Origin: Leptonemataceae bacterium
GTDB taxonomy: Bacteria; Spirochaetota; Leptospiria; Leptospirales; Leptonemataceae
NCBI GenBank assembly: GCA_965227295.1
Contig: OZ245742.1
Coordinates: 800,001 to 864,000, forward strand
Direction: 5' to 3'
DNA length: 64,000 bases
The notes beneath the pieces are model-generated. The model searched no databases. It was given only the letters and a program-made list of their open reading frames with translations, and had not been told where the DNA came from. Position numbers and translations under genes: made by a program. Below are positions 8,458-16,517 of this stretch, piece by piece. How positions within the stretch are numbered: position 1 is the first letter of the stretch; every line of letters begins with the position of its first letter.

Positions 8458-8501
8458 ATATTGAGATATCTGCATATCTCAACAGGCGGATATCTCAATA
8501 T
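8458..8501. promoter_or_regulatory. AT-rich inverted repeat/hairpin overlapping the probable hemW start
   Basis: atattgagatatc (8458-8470) and gatatctcaatat (8489-8501) form a perfect 13-bp IR; a third copy, atatctcaa, lies at 8474-8482. Confidence 0.55.
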
Positions 8502-9720
8502 GCGGATACATCGAAACTCCGATGCCACCGGCATCTACATCCATTATCCGTACTGCATCCGCAAGTGCGCGTACTGTGATTTCTACTCGGTGGGCCTCGA
8601 AGAGTCCGGACATTACGAACGCGGGCGCGGCGTTGCTCCGGAGTTGCAGCGGGCGTATTACGACGCCCTGGTCCGGGAACTCATCACACGCGCGCCGGCC
8701 TTTCAGCGCTGCGGCCAGGTGAACACGATCTTCTTCGGCGGCGGCACCGCGTCGCTGCTCCCGCCGGACATCATCGCGGACATCCTCGCGCGGATTCGCG
8801 AGCACTTCGAAATCACCGCGGACGCCGAGATCACCCTCGAAGGCAACCCCGAAAACTTTCACTCATCGTACCTTAAGCAACTGGAAGACATCGGCGTCAC
8901 TCGCGTAAACGTGGGCCTGCAAACATTTCGCGAGGATTTGTTAGATCTGGTGAATCGATACTATGATCCGGGCCGCTACGACGAGGTCCTCGCCAACCTG
9001 GCGAACAGCAGCATCGCGGCGGTGGGCGGCGATCTCATCTACGGCTTTCCCGGACAGAGCCGCGACGACTTCGAACACGATCTGCAACGTGTACTGGAAC
9101 ACCAGGCCATCAACCATCTTTCGATCTACAGCCTTACGGTAGAACCGGGCACGCCGTACGCCGCGCAGCTCCGGCAGCGCAAGATCGCCGCGCCGTTGGA
9201 AGGATTACAGGAAGAAGTCTTCCGCGATCTGCCGGCGATCCTGCGCGCGGCCGGCTTTGATCATTACGAGGTCTCGAACTACGCGCGACCGGGCTTCGCG
9301 TGCCGGCACAATCTACGCTACTGGTTGTACGAAAGTTACATGGGCCTCGGTCCCGGCGCCCACGGCTTCGACGGCCGGTTTCGCTACGGCAATCCGCGCA
9401 ACGTGGCGGCCTGGCAACGCAATCCCGCGGGGGCGGAGCAAAGCGAGCACGAGCCGTTGAGTGATCTGCCGCTCATGTATTTGCGACTGTGCTCGGGAAT
9501 TCGCGCGGAGGTGTTTGAGCAGGTGCTGCAAGATGAGCAGTACACCGGACGCCGCGATATTGCGCGCCTCGTAACGGAACAATTCCAGCGCTGGGCATCC
9601 CGGGGCCGCGGCCTCTTCGCGGACGATCAGTTTTCCTGGAGCATGAGCGGACTGCTGAACCTCGACGAACATGTCCTCGAAATGAGCGCGGCCCTGGAAG
9701 CCGTCGCATCGACGACGTAA
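8500..9720 (+). CDS. hemW: Radical SAM heme chaperone HemW
   Basis: YIHYPYCIRKCAYCDF, FFGGGT, HYEVSNYA, HNLRYW motifs; ATG 8500 chosen within ORF 8461..9720. Confidence 0.9.
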   Translation: MRIHRNSDATGIYIHYPYCIRKCAYCDFYSVGLEESGHYERGRGVAPELQRAYYDALVRELITRAPAFQRCGQVNTIFFGGGTASLLPPDIIADILARIREHFEITADAEITLEGNPENFHSSYLKQLEDIGVTRVNVGLQTFREDLLDLVNRYYDPGRYDEVLANLANSSIAAVGGDLIYGFPGQSRDDFEHDLQRVLEHQAINHLSIYSLTVEPGTPYAAQLRQRKIAAPLEGLQEEVFRDLPAILRAAGFDHYEVSNYARPGFACRHNLRYWLYESYMGLGPGAHGFDGRFRYGNPRNVAAWQRNPAGAEQSEHEPLSDLPLMYLRLCSGIRAEVFEQVLQDEQYTGRRDIARLVTEQFQRWASRGRGLFADDQFSWSMSGLLNLDEHVLEMSAALEAVASTT

Positions 9721-9745: not shown

Positions 9746-11374
9746 TCAATTGCGAGACATGGACAGCATGCCCACGATCATGGGCGTAATCTCCACGTTA
9801 AACATCTTACTGCGCATGGGCTCCGGCGCCTGCTGCTTTCCCCACTTAATGACCCGCAGCATTTTATCGATGTTCAGATCCACGCCCCTGGTCTTCGGCG
9901 AATGCAGCGCGACGATGTCCCGCGGCAGGTACTCCGCTTCACCGAGGATTTCAAAGATGCGTGCGGCGCCGGCCTGAGGCGGCATCGCGCCGCTTTCCAC
10001 CTGATCCAGCACCTCGCCGGCCTGCATCACCAGTCGCTTCGTAAATTCGGAGTAGGCACTGCTGTCCCGGAACATGGGCACCAGCTCTTGATTGCGGGTG
10101 GTAATGTACTTGATGACCAGGCCGAAGGCCCACAGGTCCTGGATCATGCCGAGGGCGGTCCAAACCATGATCATCGCGTTCCACAGCTCAGGATGTACCG
10201 TGGATCGATACATGTCGGCGATAAAGGCGTCCGTAGCATCCAGCGACTGCGCCAGTTTGTTCAGTCCGGCGAAGTCATCTTCCGAAAAGCGATTTTGCTT
10301 TAGAGCAGTATCCAGGCGATCCGCAATGAAGTGCACGAAATTCAGCGAGCTGATGAGCCCGGTGGAGAACAGGGGATCCACAAAGCCGTAGACGTTGCTC
10401 ATTAAGGCCCAGCGTTTACCGGCCGCGTTCTTTGCCGAGTACTGCAAACGTCCCGTCGATACAAAGGGACGCGTGGACTCCGCGTGACGCAGGTGTTCGG
10501 CGACGCTGGGAAATTGCTTCACGTATTTGAAGAACTCTTCTTCCGGACTCAGATCCGTGGGCGGATGCACGTTCCCGTCCAGAGTCACGCCCACGCTGCA
10601 CAGCTCGTTGCTTCCGTTGCGTCCGTCCTCGTTGTTGAACGGAATGATCCAGAACCAACCGCCTTCGAAGACGTGATGCATGGTACCTTCGTGCAAACTA
10701 CGCGACAATCCCTCGGAGGGGCCGATCTCATCGTACGCGGGGATATTCTTAAAGTGCGTGAAGATCGTGCGGGAGTTCGTCTTAAAACGAGTGGGCTCCT
10801 CCCGAAGATCGAGCATCTGGACGAGCTTCGAATTTTTTCCGGTACAATCGACGAAGAACTTTCCGGTAATCGTCCCTTTATCTTTCAGGCTTACCGTAAC
10901 CCGGTCATCGTCCAGATCAATGTCGGTAAGCTCCGTTTCTTCCATGTAATCCACGCCGTAGGATTGCGCGGTTTGTACCATGAAGTGATCGACCTGCTCG
11001 CGAAAGAAATGGCTCTCGCGGATGACGGGAAGCTCCGGCGGAATGAGTTGCCGGCCGTGATCCGCCAGTTGTGCCTGGCCGGGCTGATGGTAAGCGAAAC
11101 CGAACGAACGTTTGATGCCGCAGGCCTTCGCGAAGGCATGACGAGAGCGCGGCGGATTGGCCAGGTCCACCAGTTCCGGAATGTTGTAATGCTCTCCCAG
11201 GATCCACAACCAGATGGTACTCTGGGGTTGCATGGCTTCTCCCAGGGCGAACCGCGGATGGCTGCCCCGCTCGATCATGCTTACGGCATGGCCCTGCTTT
11301 GCCAGAATCGTGGCCAGAACACTGCCGGCCAGGCCCGAGCCGAGGACAATCACATCGGTTTCTCTATTCATCAC
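9746..11374 (-). CDS. Flavin-dependent halogenase, PrnC-like
   Basis: GSGLAG FAD loop, HPRFALGE, GIKRSFGF (Lys at the position I recall as catalytic in PrnC), GWFWIIPF (WxWxIP), GFVDPLFSTGL. Confidence 0.88.
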   Translation of the reverse strand: MMNRETDVIVLGSGLAGSVLATILAKQGHAVSMIERGSHPRFALGEAMQPQSTIWLWILGEHYNIPELVDLANPPRSRHAFAKACGIKRSFGFAYHQPGQAQLADHGRQLIPPELPVIRESHFFREQVDHFMVQTAQSYGVDYMEETELTDIDLDDDRVTVSLKDKGTITGKFFVDCTGKNSKLVQMLDLREEPTRFKTNSRTIFTHFKNIPAYDEIGPSEGLSRSLHEGTMHHVFEGGWFWIIPFNNEDGRNGSNELCSVGVTLDGNVHPPTDLSPEEEFFKYVKQFPSVAEHLRHAESTRPFVSTGRLQYSAKNAAGKRWALMSNVYGFVDPLFSTGLISSLNFVHFIADRLDTALKQNRFSEDDFAGLNKLAQSLDATDAFIADMYRSTVHPELWNAMIMVWTALGMIQDLWAFGLVIKYITTRNQELVPMFRDSSAYSEFTKRLVMQAGEVLDQVESGAMPPQAGAARIFEILGEAEYLPRDIVALHSPKTRGVDLNIDKMLRVIKWGKQQAPEPMRSKMFNVEITPMIVGMLSMSRN

Positions 11375-11383
11375 GGATCCTGC

Positions 11384-12217
11384 TCAGTTCGAATGATCGT
11401 AAGTTTCGATGACGACCGCGTGTTCGTGCTGTCCGCCCATCTGAGAACGGAAGCGATGAACGAATACGATCTCATCCGTTCCTTTACGCAGTTCGGTTTC
11501 AATCGTGAAGTCATCGTACAAATACAAGGGCCGGCTGAATTGCAGGTCGACCTTCGTAATGGAACGACCGAGCAGACCCTGGAGTTCCGGATGCCCTTGC
11601 AGCCCGGCGCCCATTTCGAGCAGAAGCTTCTCTCGCGCGGACGCCGCGAACACGCCGGCTTCGATGTACGACCATTGATCGGCCGCTTCGCAATCATGAC
11701 GATAGATGCGATGACTGACCGAAGAAGTCGCCACTAACTCGTGATTGCGCAGTTTGGCGATCTGCGGTTTCAATCTCCAGCTCACAATGCGTTTGGTGAT
11801 TTTGTCCGGCGGAAAGTAGTCCAGCACCGGCGAACCCACCGGTTCCGGTGAGGCGGCCCACTGGCCGTCTTCCAGTCGCAAAGGACAGCCCAGCATTTCC
11901 AGCGAGGCGAAATGACCCTGGCCGTTTCCGAAGAAGGCTTCCCCCCAGATCACCGTGCGTTTGTTTACGAGTTCCATTTCCGTGCTTACGTTAAAATCTT
12001 CGCTGTCAAAAAACGTGTGCGGCTTTAAGTAGCGAATCCGGGCCCCGAGCACGGCAATGCCGAACTGATCTTCAGTCAGCAGCTTCGGAAAACTCTTCAG
12101 ATGCGCCTTCACCGTCTGGGCCCAACTGCGCATGCCGATTTGCAGCACCGCCCGCGGTTGCATTTGATGCGAGTCGAACAGACTCGTGTCGTGGAGAACG
12201 TTCAGTGTAGTTTGCAT
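11384..12217 (-). CDS. Double hotdog-fold thioesterase-like protein
   Basis: Two repeats of a hotdog-type strand pattern (ARIRYLKP..F.VSTE and KVDLQFSRPL..FTIETE); HRIYRHDCEA resembles the thioesterase V.xxDxD loop. Confidence 0.6.
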   Translation of the reverse strand: MQTTLNVLHDTSLFDSHQMQPRAVLQIGMRSWAQTVKAHLKSFPKLLTEDQFGIAVLGARIRYLKPHTFFDSEDFNVSTEMELVNKRTVIWGEAFFGNGQGHFASLEMLGCPLRLEDGQWAASPEPVGSPVLDYFPPDKITKRIVSWRLKPQIAKLRNHELVATSSVSHRIYRHDCEAADQWSYIEAGVFAASAREKLLLEMGAGLQGHPELQGLLGRSITKVDLQFSRPLYLYDDFTIETELRKGTDEIVFVHRFRSQMGGQHEHAVVIETYDHSN

Positions 12218-12484
12218 TCAGCCCCCCGCGATCGCGGTAATAATGTCCAGCCTGTCGTTCGGCCCGACTCGATTCAGCAAGGCATCTTCCTGGATCTGCT
12301 CGCCGTTCAAGAACAGCCGGTGAATGGAACGTACGGTGCCGTCCGCCTCGAACAGAATCTTCTTCAGCTCCGGATACGTCTCCGAGAGCATCTCCAGACC
12401 CTGGGCGACGTTGTCGGCCTCGGTCATGTGGTTGCGTTGATAGTTGGTAAAACGCTGCAAAGTGCCTGTTACGGTGATGTTCAT
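12218..12484 (-). CDS. MoaD/ThiS-family ubiquitin-like sulfur carrier protein
   Basis: 88 aa, LFLNGE motif, C-terminus ITAIAGG ending in free Gly-Gly. Confidence 0.93.
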   Translation of the reverse strand: MNITVTGTLQRFTNYQRNHMTEADNVAQGLEMLSETYPELKKILFEADGTVRSIHRLFLNGEQIQEDALLNRVGPNDRLDIITAIAGG

Positions 12485-12524
12485 ATACTTGCTTCTCCCT
12501 GTGATCTTATGGTTGATTACTTCG

Positions 12525-13685
12525 TTAAATGAAATCGAAGAGTGTTTGCACGCCGGTATTGACTTCCAGTACGTCCTGCGCCCCGGCCCCGGGGATCATG
12601 CCGTAGCAATCACGCACGTAACGTTCAATGGGATTCGAGCAGAGATACGCGTTGCCGCCCATCAACTCAAAGGCCCACCGGGTTACATTCACGACGGCTT
12701 CCGTGCATTTGTACTTGGCGATGGACGGCGTATCATCAAAGGTCCCGTTCAACTCCGCCCCGGTAATCGCATCCAACGAGCCGTAGATCAGAGACTTCGC
12801 GGCCTCGTACTCCACGCGCATGCGGCCCAGCTTCGCCTGGACGGATCCCAGGGCCGAGATGGGCTGGCCGTGACGCACCGTTCGATTCAGGTGATCCACG
12901 CAGAGATGGATCGTGCGGGCCATGCGTCCCAGGGAAGCGGCGGCCAGCAGCGTGCGGCGCGGGTTTAAGAATTTCTGGACGTGCGTTAGTCCGCCGTCCG
13001 GAGCCAGAATTCTGTTTTGCGGAACTCTAACATCTTCCATGACGATCTTAGCGAGTCCGGCGGAGCGAAAGCCCATGGTTTCCAGCGGCACCAGACGCAT
13101 CCCCGGATCACCGGGTTCGAGCATGACCACGCAGAGTTCATCCGCGGCTTCATCGACGACGTAGGTCATGAAGGCGTCGGCGAGCATGCCGCCCGTCACC
13201 ATCACCTTCTCGCCGCGCACGACGAGGTCGTCGCCGTCTCGCTTCGCGACGCTTTTCAGATTCAGCCCGTCCGCGTTTTCGGTATAAGCGAACGAGGCCA
13301 GGGTATCGCCCGTAGCCAGGCCGCGAACGTAACGATCGATGAGATACTCATTGCCGGAGGAATGGATCATGTTCGCCACGGCGGGAAAGAGACTGATCGT
13401 CAGTCCAAACGAACCGTCATCGCAAATTCGTCCCATCCGCTCCAGCACACGCCCCCACTGCGCTGCCGTACAACCGCGGCCCCCCACTTCCACGGGCAAC
13501 GAGGCCCGTAACAGCTCGCAGGCTTCCGGCGTTTTTAACAGCGCGCGATCGAACGTTTCGCACTTTCGGTCCCGCTCCGCGCATGTGCGGGATACCTCCG
13601 CCAGGAAACTACCCGCAACGGAGTCTACCCACATGGGAATATCCTCTAACTGCTCGCCGATCGACTCTTGCATCTTAACGTTCAT
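12525..13685 (-). CDS. Acyl-CoA dehydrogenase-fold flavoprotein (atypical active site)
   Basis: PVEVGGRG, FAYTE, GEKVMVT, MGFRS, ELMGGNAY, IERYVRD motifs; no Glu at either canonical base position. Confidence 0.85.
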   Translation of the reverse strand: MNVKMQESIGEQLEDIPMWVDSVAGSFLAEVSRTCAERDRKCETFDRALLKTPEACELLRASLPVEVGGRGCTAAQWGRVLERMGRICDDGSFGLTISLFPAVANMIHSSGNEYLIDRYVRGLATGDTLASFAYTENADGLNLKSVAKRDGDDLVVRGEKVMVTGGMLADAFMTYVVDEAADELCVVMLEPGDPGMRLVPLETMGFRSAGLAKIVMEDVRVPQNRILAPDGGLTHVQKFLNPRRTLLAAASLGRMARTIHLCVDHLNRTVRHGQPISALGSVQAKLGRMRVEYEAAKSLIYGSLDAITGAELNGTFDDTPSIAKYKCTEAVVNVTRWAFELMGGNAYLCSNPIERYVRDCYGMIPGAGAQDVLEVNTGVQTLFDFI

Positions 13686-13890
13686 TTGCGGCTCCCATCC
13701 GAACGATGGCGCCGCGGTGTTGCTTTGCGAGAAGATTTAGCCGGACATAGTCGGAATCCGGAGAAACACTCCCCAAAGGAGAGAGTGTCGCGCGATTTGC
13801 TGCACCGGCAACGATTTAGATGCTGACGATTTCGGTGACCGGGGCGGAATACTGGCTGTAAAACTATATATGGAAGCAGGTTGGAGTAAC

Positions 13891-15051
13891 ATGAAATCAC
13901 AAACAGTCAACAAACCACTCATTGCGAGCGAGAGCCTGCCGGAACTGGAGCCCGCGGAGGTCCGCCGTTACGACCGGCACATTATTCTTCCGAACGTTGG
14001 CCGCGAAGGACAGCAGAAACTCAAGGCCGCGCGCGTACTGATCATCGGCGCCGGCGGCCTGGGCTCACCCATCTCCCTGTATCTGGCCGCGGCGGGAGTG
14101 GGAACGCTCGGCCTGGTTGACTCCGATACCGTGGACGAATCGAATCTCCAGCGCCAGGTGCTCTACGGTTCCCAGGACCTGGGACTTTCCAAAGTAGACA
14201 GAGCGGAAGCCCGTCTCAATCAATTGAATCCCCGGACGGAAATCGTAAAGTTCAAAGACAGACTGAGCTCGGCCAACGCCCTCGATATCATCGGGGACTT
14301 TGATCTGGTCGTGGACGGTACGGACAACTTCCCCACGCGCTACCTGGTCAACGATGCGTGCGTCATGCTGGGCAAGCCCTTCTGTTACGGCAGCATCTAT
14401 CAATTCGAAGGGCAGGCGTCCGTCTTCCATCACGCAGACGGGCCGTGCTATCGCTGTCTGTATCCGGAACCGCCGCCGCCGCACCTCGCCCCTTCCTGTT
14501 CCGAGGGCGGCGTGTTCGGTGTTTTGCCTTCGATCATCGGTTCGATCCAGGCCACGGAAGCGATCAAGCTCATCCTCGGCCAGGGAGATGTCTTGAGCGG
14601 ACGTTATCTACTCTTTGACGCGCTCTCCATGGACTTCCGGGAGCTCGCCATCAAACGTAAGTCGGACTGCGCCGTATGCGGGGATGCGCCGACGGTGACC
14701 GACCTCATCGACTACAATCAATTTTGCGGCCTGCCCCCGGTTAACACGGACCCGGGTTACAAAGAAATTACCGGCGCGGATCTCAGGACCCTGCTCGCCG
14801 AAACGAATCCACCGGTGCTGTTGGATGTTCGGGAAGACCATGAGCGCGCCGTGGCTCTCATTCCGGAGTCCATTCACATTCCCATGCACGACGTCGCGTC
14901 TCGCCTGAGCGAGCTGGACGCGCAGCGACCCACCGTCGTGCATTGTAAGATGGGCGGACGTTCCGCGAAGATTTGCGGTACGCTGCTGGCCGCCGGCTTC
15001 ACCGACGTCAGTAATCTCAAAGGTGGAATCGACGCGTACTACGCCGGGTAA
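13891..15051 (+). CDS. moeZ: MoeZ/MoeB-type ThiF adenylyltransferase fused to a rhodanese domain
   Basis: RYDRHI, GAGGLG, SNLQRQ, DGTDNF, CYRC and CAVC zinc site, C-terminal rhodanese HCKMGGRS. Confidence 0.92.
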   Translation: MKSQTVNKPLIASESLPELEPAEVRRYDRHIILPNVGREGQQKLKAARVLIIGAGGLGSPISLYLAAAGVGTLGLVDSDTVDESNLQRQVLYGSQDLGLSKVDRAEARLNQLNPRTEIVKFKDRLSSANALDIIGDFDLVVDGTDNFPTRYLVNDACVMLGKPFCYGSIYQFEGQASVFHHADGPCYRCLYPEPPPPHLAPSCSEGGVFGVLPSIIGSIQATEAIKLILGQGDVLSGRYLLFDALSMDFRELAIKRKSDCAVCGDAPTVTDLIDYNQFCGLPPVNTDPGYKEITGADLRTLLAETNPPVLLDVREDHERAVALIPESIHIPMHDVASRLSELDAQRPTVVHCKMGGRSAKICGTLLAAGFTDVSNLKGGIDAYYAG

Positions 15052-15077: not shown

Positions 15078-16517
15078 TTAGAACTGAAAATAAATAAACT
15101 GCCCGCTCGCGTCGCCGTAGACCGTCACCAGGTAACCGACCACGAACGTGCCGACGAACACTAATACGTAACGAAGCACAGTTTGCCGGCCGAGCCATTC
15201 TTTGATGCCCGGGTAGTACTGCGGAATGTTAAACAACAACGCCGTAAGACTCAAGAGCAACGTGCCGTCGAAGGACCCCACGGGATTCGCGCGCTGGAAC
15301 GTGAAGATGCCGTAAAAGAGATCCATGGCCTTATCGAAACCCGGGGCCGCGAAGAACACGGCGGTGTAAGCAAACAACAGATACGTACGCGCGCCGCGCA
15401 AAAAGTTCGCCCAACGGGCGTCATCGGGTAGAATCTGCCAGCCGCGTCCCACCGTAAACTGTTCCCAACATAATATTAAGCCGAGCAGCACGCCCCATAC
15501 GAACATCGTCCAGGTGGCCCCGTGCCAGAGGCCGCCCAACGCCATAGTGATTAACACGTTAACATATACCCGGGACGGCCCGACCCGCGAACCGCCCAGC
15601 GGAATGAAGATGTAATCGCGCAACCACATGGTGAGCGTGATGTGCCAGCGTCGCCAGAGCTCGCGCATGGACTTCGCGAGGAACGGACCCGCAAAGTTTT
15701 CGGGAATCTCGTAGCCGATCATCTTCGCCATGCCGCGGGCCATGTCCGTATAGCCGGAGAAGTCGCAGTAGACCTGTGAGATGAAGGCAATCGGAGCGAG
15801 GATCAGGGCCGTGGCGTCGTACTCGGCGGGGTTTTGCCAGAGCGGCGTCATCACCATGCCGATGCGATCGGCGATCAGCACTTTCTTAATGACGCCCTGT
15901 AAAACCAGCAACGAACCGTTCAGCATCTTATCCCGGGACGGCTGCGGATTGTCGATCTGCGGAATGAAATCCGAAGAACGCATGATCGGCCCGGCGATGA
16001 ATTGCGGAAAGAACAGAATGAAAATGACGTACTTGCGAAAGGAAACGCCGGAACTAACGCCGTCTACCTCGGTCTCTTTGATCTCGCCGCGATACGCGTC
16101 GACGAGAAAGGCGACGATCTGGAACGTATAGAACGAGATGGCGATGGGCAACTCGATGCCGAAGTCGTAGTCTTCGATCCAGTTGCGCCGCAGGTCGGCG
16201 ATGTAAGGATCCCCGATGAGCACGCCGGCGGATTCTGCGAAGAAATAAAAATACTTAAAGAATGCAAGGTTCCCGATGTCTATGACCAGGCCCACGATCA
16301 ACGGCCACAGCATCTTGCGTTTCATAAGCAAGGCGCTGAGATAGTAGTTTATGCAGATCAGCAGTAGAAAAACGCCGAGGAAAAAGGGGCTATACCAGGC
16401 GTAGAAAATAAAGCTTGTCAGGATGATGAGAAGCTGCTTTCCTCGAACCGGCAACGGCCAGTAGAGCAGATAAAAAACAAAAAAGAGTACGAGAAAAACT
16501 GCCGAGTTGAACAGCAT
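15078..16517 (-). CDS. MBOAT family O-acyltransferase (AlgI/DltB-like)
   Basis: LPIAISFYTFQ, FFPQFIAGPI, YCDFSGYTD, WRRWHITL, GLWHGA motifs. Confidence 0.93.
   Translation of the reverse strand: MLFNSAVFLVLFFVFYLLYWPLPVRGKQLLIILTSFIFYAWYSPFFLGVFLLLICINYYLSALLMKRKMLWPLIVGLVIDIGNLAFFKYFYFFAESAGVLIGDPYIADLRRNWIEDYDFGIELPIAISFYTFQIVAFLVDAYRGEIKETEVDGVSSGVSFRKYVIFILFFPQFIAGPIMRSSDFIPQIDNPQPSRDKMLNGSLLVLQGVIKKVLIADRIGMVMTPLWQNPAEYDATALILAPIAFISQVYCDFSGYTDMARGMAKMIGYEIPENFAGPFLAKSMRELWRRWHITLTMWLRDYIFIPLGGSRVGPSRVYVNVLITMALGGLWHGATWTMFVWGVLLGLILCWEQFTVGRGWQILPDDARWANFLRGARTYLLFAYTAVFFAAPGFDKAMDLFYGIFTFQRANPVGSFDGTLLLSLTALLFNIPQYYPGIKEWLGRQTVLRYVLVFVGTFVVGYLVTVYGDASGQFIYFQF

Follow-up and report, generated by a model that had tools for sequence, protein, structure and literature searches.

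Sulfur carriers of the ThiS/MoaD type pass on the sulfur of a thiocarboxylate, and only a handful of acceptor routes is known for it: ThiG, MoaE, CysM or MetY together with JAB peptidases, BexX, and type III coenzyme A (CoA)-transferases. In CysO-CysM-Mec+ (cysteine), HcyS (homocysteine) and Cxm3/Cxm4 (chuangxinmycin), the carrier thiocarboxylate attacks an activated carbon and the adduct is then resolved. The known thio-acid pathways combine an acyl-CoA synthetase with a two-domain type III CoA-transferase and obtain sulfur through ThiS-like carriers and a MoeZ-like activating enzyme (E1), according to the available part of one report (PMC6006322). The joining of carrier-thiocarboxylate and CoA-thioester chemistry has precedent there and in the operon table for pyridine-2,6-dithiocarboxylic acid (PDTC) in the accessible text of PMC1779556, where PDTC-type operons also include a JAB peptidase. 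Here we compare with these systems a five-gene block at positions 9746-15051 of a 64,000-nucleotide stretch from a Leptonemataceae bacterium (Spirochaetota; contig OZ245742.1, positions 800,001 to 864,000), the whole of which we call the window. The block encodes a ThiS/MoaD-type carrier, a MoeZ/MoeB-type E1 fused to a rhodanese, a flavoprotein of the acyl-CoA dehydrogenase (ACAD) fold, a double-hotdog protein and a flavin-dependent halogenase. The explanation that we favor, and hold to be about evenly balanced between right and wrong, is that these genes form one accessory biosynthetic module moving between bacteria, in which formation of a carrier thiocarboxylate would be followed by sulfur insertion through the ACAD-fold and hotdog proteins and then by halogenation. 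The pathway is probably accessory and horizontally spread. Its product would be a small molecule that probably contains sulfur and is possibly halogenated, made by undescribed chemistry of which we infer every step.

Four genes of the block lie close together on the minus strand. The ACAD-fold gene (12525-13685; 386 aa), in which all three ACAD domains of Pfam were recognized, is followed after 40 bp by the carrier gene (12218-12484; 88 aa; Pfam ThiS), whose product ends in AIAGG. Reading the DNA directly, we found that the TGA of the carrier gene abuts the ATG of the hotdog gene, a gap of 0 bp. The latter (11384-12217; 277 aa) encodes a double-hotdog, thioesterase-fold protein, recognized from a sub-threshold 4HBT_2 match, a predicted model and Foldseek. 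The halogenase gene (9746-11374; 541-542 aa; Trp_halogenase in Pfam, E 2e-15) begins 9 bp downstream if counted from a GTG, or 12 bp downstream if counted from the ATG at 11371. The ATG is the likely start, with a better ribosome-binding spacing than the GTG; an AGGA lies 7 nt upstream of it, and the 541-aa form in the database begins there. On the plus strand, the gene for the E1 adenylyltransferase fused to a rhodanese sulfurtransferase domain (13870-15051; 393 aa; ThiF and Rhodanese) diverges from the other four across 184 bp (13686-13869), a region presumed from the gene arrangement alone to hold the promoters of both transcription units. Gene calls, Pfam and NCBIfam scans and the DNA itself agree with the five genes, the spacing and the domain content given in a preliminary description of this locus.

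The block recurs elsewhere in the genus. In a metagenome-assembled genome labeled "Leptospirales bacterium" (G001), tblastn detected all five genes in the same order and with a divergent E1, and MoeZ, ACAD, carrier, hotdog and halogenase were 76-82% identical to those of the window (77% for the E1, which occupies the same divergent position). The divergent spacer of G001 measures 219 bp and matches the place of the 184 bp in the window, and the hotdog and halogenase open reading frames overlap by 4 bp. The genomic location is another one: G001 carries the module at ~0.51 Mb, but has its orthologues of the genes on the hemW side and on the MBOAT side of the window at 2.82 Mb and 2.95 Mb, so that the hemW and MBOAT orthologues are 2.3-2.4 Mb away from the module. 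Hotdog and halogenase genes are each present in the same 2 of 41 related genomes, and G002, also of this genus, has neither. A third instance of the block is likely, as a halogenase (P0021, 85% identical) and an ACAD-fold protein (P0287, 80%) both come from a 23,759-bp contig of the same source. At greater distance the hotdog family is rare, being present in 1 of 301 sampled Spirochaetota genomes (only that of the window, G000) and in 2 of 301 genomes sampled from the phylum of G325. The same block at a different locus, together with the shared presence pattern of hotdog and halogenase, bears out the earlier view of the five genes as one unit, and a chance neighborhood is very unlikely.

Across phyla, the conserved unit is narrower than the cluster first described: the five genes recur together in G001, of the same genus, and outside the genus the unit consists of the carrier, ACAD-fold and hotdog genes (plus the E1), the halogenase being an add-on. 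We collected 7 hotdog loci from a scan of one genome per species and 8 more from JGI metagenomes. The check for co-occurrence that the preliminary description had proposed came out in favor of linkage: of 15 loci in Spirochaetota, Myxococcota and Burkholderiales that could be assessed, 14 have the three genes side by side (the window, L004-L010, L035, L038, L040, L041, L044 and L048, with L004 being the locus in G001); L036, L039 and L042 were too short to judge and stand outside the 15. At L037:854-2614, the exception, the hotdog gene is preceded by only the last ~100 ACAD codons and lacks a carrier gene; this may be a disrupted copy.

Two arrangements of the triad were observed. In the first, the order is ACAD-carrier-hotdog (the window, L004, L040, L041, L044 and L048). 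The second, seen in Myxococcota and Burkholderiales (L005:3826-12149, L006, L007, L008, L009, L010, L035 and L038), is a cluster of some ten genes. It comprises a UbiE-like methyltransferase, a 115-aa protein that belongs to no family, a TrmO-like protein, a PF10118 protein, carrier, ACAD, hotdog, an AhpC/redoxin protein, an esterase of the polyhydroxybutyrate (PHB)-depolymerase type and a HemN-class (class C) radical S-adenosylmethionine (SAM) enzyme, often accompanied by a second TrmO-like gene and a major facilitator superfamily (MFS) gene. No family model names this cluster and we found no paper on it; no useful solved relative of the PF10118 protein was found, and only HemN and NocN appeared as relatives of the radical SAM enzyme. 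Of the 11 long loci, 5 have an E1 next to the triad, and in one of these a cysteine desulfurase-family gene is present as well. Both L044 and L048, whose hotdog proteins are 28-30% identical to that of the window, carry an E1. The order at L044 is ACAD, carrier, hotdog, a 298-aa unknown protein and a MoeZ homologue. At L048:5744-12552 (genome G618), a class-V aminotransferase gene of the cysteine-desulfurase family (E 5e-88) and a ThiF gene without rhodanese are divergent to ACAD-carrier-hotdog, which is followed by an FHA/sigma-54 activator and by no tailoring genes, apparently the system in minimal form. The operon at L040 ends after the hotdog gene. Among the loci seen, a halogenase accompanies the triad in the genus of the window alone; of the 13 other triad loci only L004 has one.

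We further analyzed the individual proteins. Family scans covered the five genes and the two genes flanking them and, for the ThiS, ThiF and MoaE families, the whole genome. The carrier combines a beta-grasp domain of the ThiS family (29.7 bits in Pfam, cut-off 22.5) with a C-terminal Gly-Gly, as expected of a ThiS/MoaD protein, and falls below the NCBIfam cut-offs for SAMP1 and MoaD_arch. The AIAGG tail was invariant in 12 of 12 carrier family members from triad loci. A cognate E1 and a sulfur source are at hand in the divergent ThiF-rhodanese protein (ThiF, E 3.7e-83, 278.8 bits; Rhodanese, E 8e-15, 55.6 bits; Pfam), the translation of which contains the zinc motifs CYRC and CAVC and the rhodanese loop HCKMGGR. 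With a ThiF domain and a rhodanese bearing the active-site Cys loop, this protein is of the MoeZ/MoeB type. It scores below the NCBIfam equivalog cut-offs for MoeB/MoeZ (452.8 vs 633, 447.8 vs 449 and 431.2 vs 647) and passes only the subfamily model PRK05690 (295.8 vs 266). The genome contains four ThiS-family matches, of which three are above the cut-off, namely the cluster's own carrier, one at 708 kb that lies 39 bp from a MoaE gene, and one at 3.70 Mb, as well as three matches to the ThiF family, one of them a further MoeB/ThiF-type gene at 3.62 Mb. Because the genome has these separate MoaD/MoaE, ThiS-family and MoeB genes, the carrier and E1 of the cluster are extra copies, distinct from the molybdenum cofactor (Moco)/thiamine set. 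The objection foreseen in the preliminary description, that its MoeZ and MoaD might be the only Moco or thiamine copies of the genome, does not apply.

The ACAD-fold flavoprotein possesses the complete three-domain fold, with Acyl-CoA_dh_N, _M and _1 all above the Pfam cut-offs, and lies far below every NCBIfam equivalog cut-off (best 123.5 vs 640 bits). It lacks the catalytic Glu that marks a true acyl-CoA dehydrogenase. In an alignment with butyryl-CoA dehydrogenase 4l1f, "iyegt" pairs with "ipgag", placing Ala367 in the position of the YEG Glu, and this column contains Ala, Val or Gln and never an acidic residue in 41 of 41 subfamily members, distant triads and a natural fusion included. 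Because this residue is absent, plain acyl-CoA dehydrogenation appears doubtful from the sequence. The 41 members share an invariant Arg-Arg pair, R243-R244, of which R243 stands in the column that we take to be the alternative base position (Thr255 in medium-chain acyl-CoA dehydrogenase, MCAD; Glu254 in isovaleryl-CoA dehydrogenase, IVD). In a phylogenetic tree of the 41 ACAD-fold sequences, the three Leptospirales sequences form one clade, which is sister to seven metagenomic sequences (P0289-P0295), and both together are sister to the clade of the second arrangement.

The hotdog protein scores below the cut-offs of Pfam 4HBT_2 (20.7 vs 25.5 bits) and of YbgC/FadM (17.4 vs 68.7). Its AlphaFold (AF2) model (predicted local distance difference test, pLDDT, 87.8; predicted template-modeling score, pTM, 0.87) consists of two helix-plus-sheet units, that is, a double hotdog. 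Foldseek matched this model to double-hotdog thioesterases with probability 1.00, TM-scores of 0.63-0.79 and identities of 8-14%; the best matches were the acyl-acyl carrier protein (ACP) thioesterases 4gak and 2own (TM 0.73-0.79), ACOT7 and LnmK. Neighbors in the ESM Atlas were named acyl-CoA thioesterase or carried LnmK_N_HDF. Model and matches thus confirm the double-hotdog identity proposed earlier. The protein has a motif, R173-H-D-C176-E177-A-A-D180-Q-W182, with the family form R-H-x-C-E-[AV]-A-D-Q-W, and conservation among 142 full-length members is 97% for R173, 85% for C176, 97% for E177, 94% for D180, 99% for W182 and 94% for H254. The most conserved residues are in the second unit (R173, C176, E177, D180, Q181, W182, R195, E196, H254 and E271). 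In the predicted model the first of them sit where the second central helix begins, a place that in hotdog enzymes usually holds the catalytic site. The family is rare, with 19 proteins, including that of the window, found by a word-based search among 5.8 billion, and a profile search of 1.84 billion cluster representatives yielded 218 at E <= 0.001 and 113 at E <= 1e-30. One member (P0220, 682 aa) is a natural fusion of a hotdog with an ACAD-fold part, again without the catalytic Glu. A prediction of the hotdog-carrier complex gave scores of 0.20 and 0.18 against a mark of 0.32, without controls, and is used here neither for nor against binding. Another family member, P0256 (810 aa), is a natural fusion of malate synthase with a hotdog, which hints at C4-dicarboxyl-CoA-type substrates for some of the family.

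Flavin-dependent halogenases are defined by the motifs GxGxxG and WxWxIP, and the translated halogenase contains both, as the flavin adenine dinucleotide (FAD) motif GSGLAG at residues 12-17 and as WFWIIP. Searches of the PDB with phmmer matched residues 4-514 to CtcP, a tetracycline 7-halogenase (7xgb, E 5.9e-97), a span that takes in the clade-specific C-terminal helical region. The match to PltM, a phenol halogenase (6bza), had an E of 5.9e-78, and that to the carrier-dependent PltA reached only 1.2e-24. K88 (CGIKRSFGF) aligns with the GQK lysine of CtcP and the GIK lysine of PltM; the catalytic lysines of these enzymes are Lys98 and Lys87, respectively, in the available part of PMC12400496. 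PrnC is described as closely related to PltM and CtcP, all acting on free-standing substrates, in the accessible portion of PMC10770391. The protein is thus assigned to the free-substrate (variant A) CtcP/PltM/PrnC clade with its catalytic motifs kept. The earlier label "PrnC-type" is fair, as judged from the matches to CtcP and PltM rather than to PrnC itself. This is the sole Trp_halogenase-family match in the genome, and in the collection of 5.8 billion proteins only two relatives, at 85% and 78% identity, are close, all others being <=43% identical.

Taken as one module, the proteins may act as follows. As is known for its family, the E1-rhodanese would adenylate the terminal glycine of the carrier and convert it to a thiocarboxylate. 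The ACAD-fold and hotdog proteins, a co-evolving pair, would then use this thiocarboxylate to place sulfur in a substrate of the thioester type, which might be an acyl-CoA or else a carrier-bound intermediate. The flavoprotein, having lost the dehydrogenase base and gained the invariant Arg-Arg, may bind or activate the substrate, and the hotdog protein may form or resolve a carrier-C(=O)-S-substrate thioester, freeing a thiol or thio-acid and regenerating the carrier, which is the job of JAB peptidases or type III CoA-transferases elsewhere. In this genus only, the free-substrate halogenase would finally chlorinate or brominate the released electron-rich product, drawing its reduced flavin (FADH2) from a reductase encoded elsewhere. 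The preliminary description had proposed a halogenated thio-acid or other sulfur-containing small molecule. Support for the sulfur role of the carrier comes from the E1-rhodanese and from the desulfurase and ThiF genes at L048, whereas the product, its sulfur and its halogen are inferred.

Several observations weigh against the module as we propose it. The base known from dehydrogenases is missing from the ACAD-fold protein, leaving its chemistry open. Because Cys176 is Ser or Ala in some Burkholderia-type hotdog members, covalent catalysis through this residue is, on sequence grounds, not general in the family. A CoA ligase, adenylation (A) domain, polyketide synthase (PKS) or nonribosomal peptide synthetase (NRPS) was found neither within the block nor in the genes flanking it, be it in the window or in G001. 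The block contains no flavin reductase, and the only Flavin_Reduct match in the genome is at 1.80 Mb. A free-substrate halogenase requires an electron-rich sp2 carbon, which a simple mercapto-acyl product would not offer. The word-based search yielded no hotdog protein of ~80% identity for the contig of P0021 and P0287, where the copy may be incomplete or uncalled. Finally, the link to the halogenase rests on two or three genomes that are close kin, and the halogenase could be a passenger.

One alternative is that the carrier serves as a scaffold. The substrate would stay covalently on its C-terminus, bound as an amide or, through the thiocarboxylate sulfur, as a thioester, the ACAD-fold and hotdog proteins would act on the tethered intermediate, and the hotdog protein would release it for the halogenase, much as prolyl-carrier dehydrogenases and acyl-ACP thioesterases act on substrates bound to an ACP or peptidyl carrier protein (PCP). 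We consider this unlikely. The best named NCBIfam matches of the ACAD-fold family do include the prolyl-PCP dehydrogenases RedW (E 3.5e-34) and PigA (E 1.5e-32); however, the scores of the window's protein are far below the cut-offs (118.2 against 650 and 88.9 against 500, respectively), and ordinary acyl-CoA dehydrogenases score equally well. The nearest folds of the hotdog protein are acyl-ACP thioesterases and the ACP-loading LnmK, and its gene is translationally abutted to that of the carrier. In agreement with the absence of an ACP noted in the preliminary description, no PP-binding (ACP/PCP) match fell within the window's genome coordinates, so that the ThiS-type protein is the only carrier protein present. 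On the other hand, the rhodanese and the linkage to a cysteine desulfurase point to sulfur delivery, and enzymes of this halogenase clade take free rather than tethered substrates.

It is also conceivable, and in our judgment improbable, that the triad and E1 form an accessory module of sulfur metabolism, for a thiol cofactor, a primary-type metabolite or sulfur salvage or detoxification, and that the halogenase is a separate neighbor or a plain flavin monooxygenase. Minimal versions without tailoring genes exist, as at L048, where a sigma-54 activator follows, and at L040, which ends after the hotdog gene; the ACAD-fold family has weak matches to the ACAD-fold sulfur enzymes SfnB and 3-sulfinopropanoyl-CoA desulfinase, and no scaffold-forming enzyme is present. 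Nevertheless, the rare and patchy spread (see the counts above for relatives, Spirochaetota and the G325 phylum) fits specialized metabolism, and the triads of Myxococcota and Burkholderiales are found among methyltransferases, a class C radical SAM enzyme, a redoxin, an esterase and an MFS exporter. Moreover, the halogenase gene of G001 has a 4-bp overlap with the hotdog gene, and the halogenase shares the presence pattern of the hotdog protein and keeps the halogenase-specific Lys and WxWxIP. That the genes are unrelated neighbors is highly improbable. On this view MoeZ and the carrier would serve Moco, thiamine, cysteine or tRNA thiolation, and fatty-acid metabolism would employ the ACAD-fold and hotdog proteins. 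In its favor, each domain alone is common and the E1 scores near the MoeB/MoeZ equivalog models (447.8 vs 449). Against it stand the adjacency of the triad at 14 of 15 loci in several phyla, the natural fusion of a hotdog with an ACAD-fold part, the MoaD-MoaE, ThiS-family and MoeB genes present elsewhere in the genome, the missing catalytic Glu of the ACAD-fold protein, and the invariant AIAGG tail that marks the carrier family.

The block is bordered by hemW (8461-9720, plus strand), which is convergent with the halogenase gene and 25 bp from it, and by an MBOAT gene (15078-16517, minus strand) 26 bp from the E1-rhodanese gene. The statement that the five genes are inserted between these two stands as a description but not as an insertion event, since no flanking direct or inverted repeats were found at the block ends and synteny with G001 and G002 is too broken for an empty site to be recognized. 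GC content is 55-58% within the block and 58-62% in the surroundings, with no clear shift. A sigma-70 consensus scan returned no promoter-like sites and a terminator consensus scan 7 sites against 5.0 expected; both were uninformative. The product of hemW passes the NCBIfam HemW model narrowly (211.8 vs a cut-off of 205.4 bits). We considered this gene as a sixth cluster member and rejected it, at 26% identity to the HemN-class radical SAM genes of the Myxococcota and Burkholderiales clusters; its orthologues in G001 and G002 keep their own upstream neighbor, away from the module. The module of G001 is flanked on one side by a methyl-accepting chemotaxis protein (MCP), a FadL/TodX protein and an AraC regulator, and on the other by a cytochrome c peroxidase and a STAS protein. 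The AraC-family regulator and the FadL/TodX-type outer-membrane channel for hydrophobic compounds adjoin the E1 gene there (L004:1974-5185), and neither is found at the window copy. Outside the window, at G000:C1:4,883,578-4,899,594, open frames of 1916, 2636 and 3247 aa encode four PP-binding domains, a sign of a large PKS/NRPS locus and so of other secondary metabolism in the organism.

A bolder form of the preferred explanation, in which all five genes act as one module, is that the ACAD-fold and double-hotdog proteins are a new sulfur-carrier-dependent machinery for C-S bonds or thio-acids that takes the place of the pyridoxal 5'-phosphate (PLP) enzymes, JAB peptidases or CoA-transferases found in all carrier-thiocarboxylate pathways known, and that in this genus it feeds a free-substrate halogenase, making up the first combined organohalogen and organosulfur pathway in Spirochaetota. 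We put this forward tentatively, as possible but somewhat doubtful. To our knowledge, Spirochaetota are not known for halogenated sulfur metabolites. If true, a base-less ACAD-fold protein acting with a double hotdog and its own carrier would add new enzymology to thiocarboxylate sulfur transfer, and its link to the halogenase would suggest a halogenated sulfur metabolite that is new to science. The R-H-x-C-E-[AV]-A-D-Q-W motif of the hotdog protein and the AIAGG tail of the carrier provide a handle for genome mining, and the ten-gene cluster of Myxococcota and Burkholderiales is a second, untouched target built on the same core.

The combination of genes appears to be undescribed, as the preliminary description had supposed, since it is matched by no known family model, solved structure or paper found. 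The available text of the 2006 survey of ThiS/MoaD neighborhoods (PMC1779556) contains no occurrence of an acyl-CoA, thioesterase, hotdog or halogenase context. In the full-text literature searched, outside of which lie most subscription journals, we found no paper in which a halogenase, or a pair of an ACAD-like and a hotdog protein, is joined to a ThiS/MoaD carrier or to MoeZ, and none that places PrnC, CtcP or PltM next to a sulfur-carrier system.

Part by part, likenesses to known systems are clear. The block halogenase keeps the catalytic Lys and WxWxIP of the clade to which CtcP (tetracycline), PltM (phloroglucinol) and PrnC (aryl-pyrrole) belong. The pyoluteorin pathway is laid out with an ACAD-fold prolyl-carrier dehydrogenase, a carrier protein, a thioesterase and halogenases. 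The block presents the same set of folds (ACAD-fold enzyme, small carrier, thioesterase and FADH2-dependent halogenase), and PltM and PltA are among its PDB matches; the phosphopantetheinyl PCP of pyoluteorin is loaded by an A domain, whereas the block carrier is a beta-grasp protein of the ThiS type activated by an E1. FatA/FatB-type thioesterases and LnmK resemble the hotdog protein in fold, and the hotdog family differs from them by its own motif and by its partnering with an ACAD-fold protein and a carrier. Unlike the systems that form C-S bonds with a carrier and a JAB/JAMM peptidase, the block has neither a PLP enzyme nor such a peptidase, and the hotdog protein would have to resolve the adduct.

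In sulfur activation the block resembles the cassettes for PDTC, thioquinolobactin, yatakemycin and thioplatensimycin (PdtH/F/J/I, QbsE/C/L/K and PtmS2-4/A3/U4), which likewise pair a GG-ending ThiS-type carrier with an E1-rhodanese. As far as the accessible portions of the reports describe them, these thio-acid cassettes deliver sulfur to a thioester-activated small molecule, with a carrier that is either dedicated or recruited. Acyl-CoA synthetase, type III CoA-transferase and JAB/JAMM peptidase were all absent from the five genes, hemW, the MBOAT gene and the flanks in G001, the JAB search having been confined to these genes, and a thio-acid made by the known synthetase and CoA-transferase route is therefore not supported. 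Where those cassettes have the AMP-ligase and the CaiB/type III CoA-transferase, the block has its double-hotdog protein and the ACAD-fold flavoprotein that lacks the catalytic Glu.

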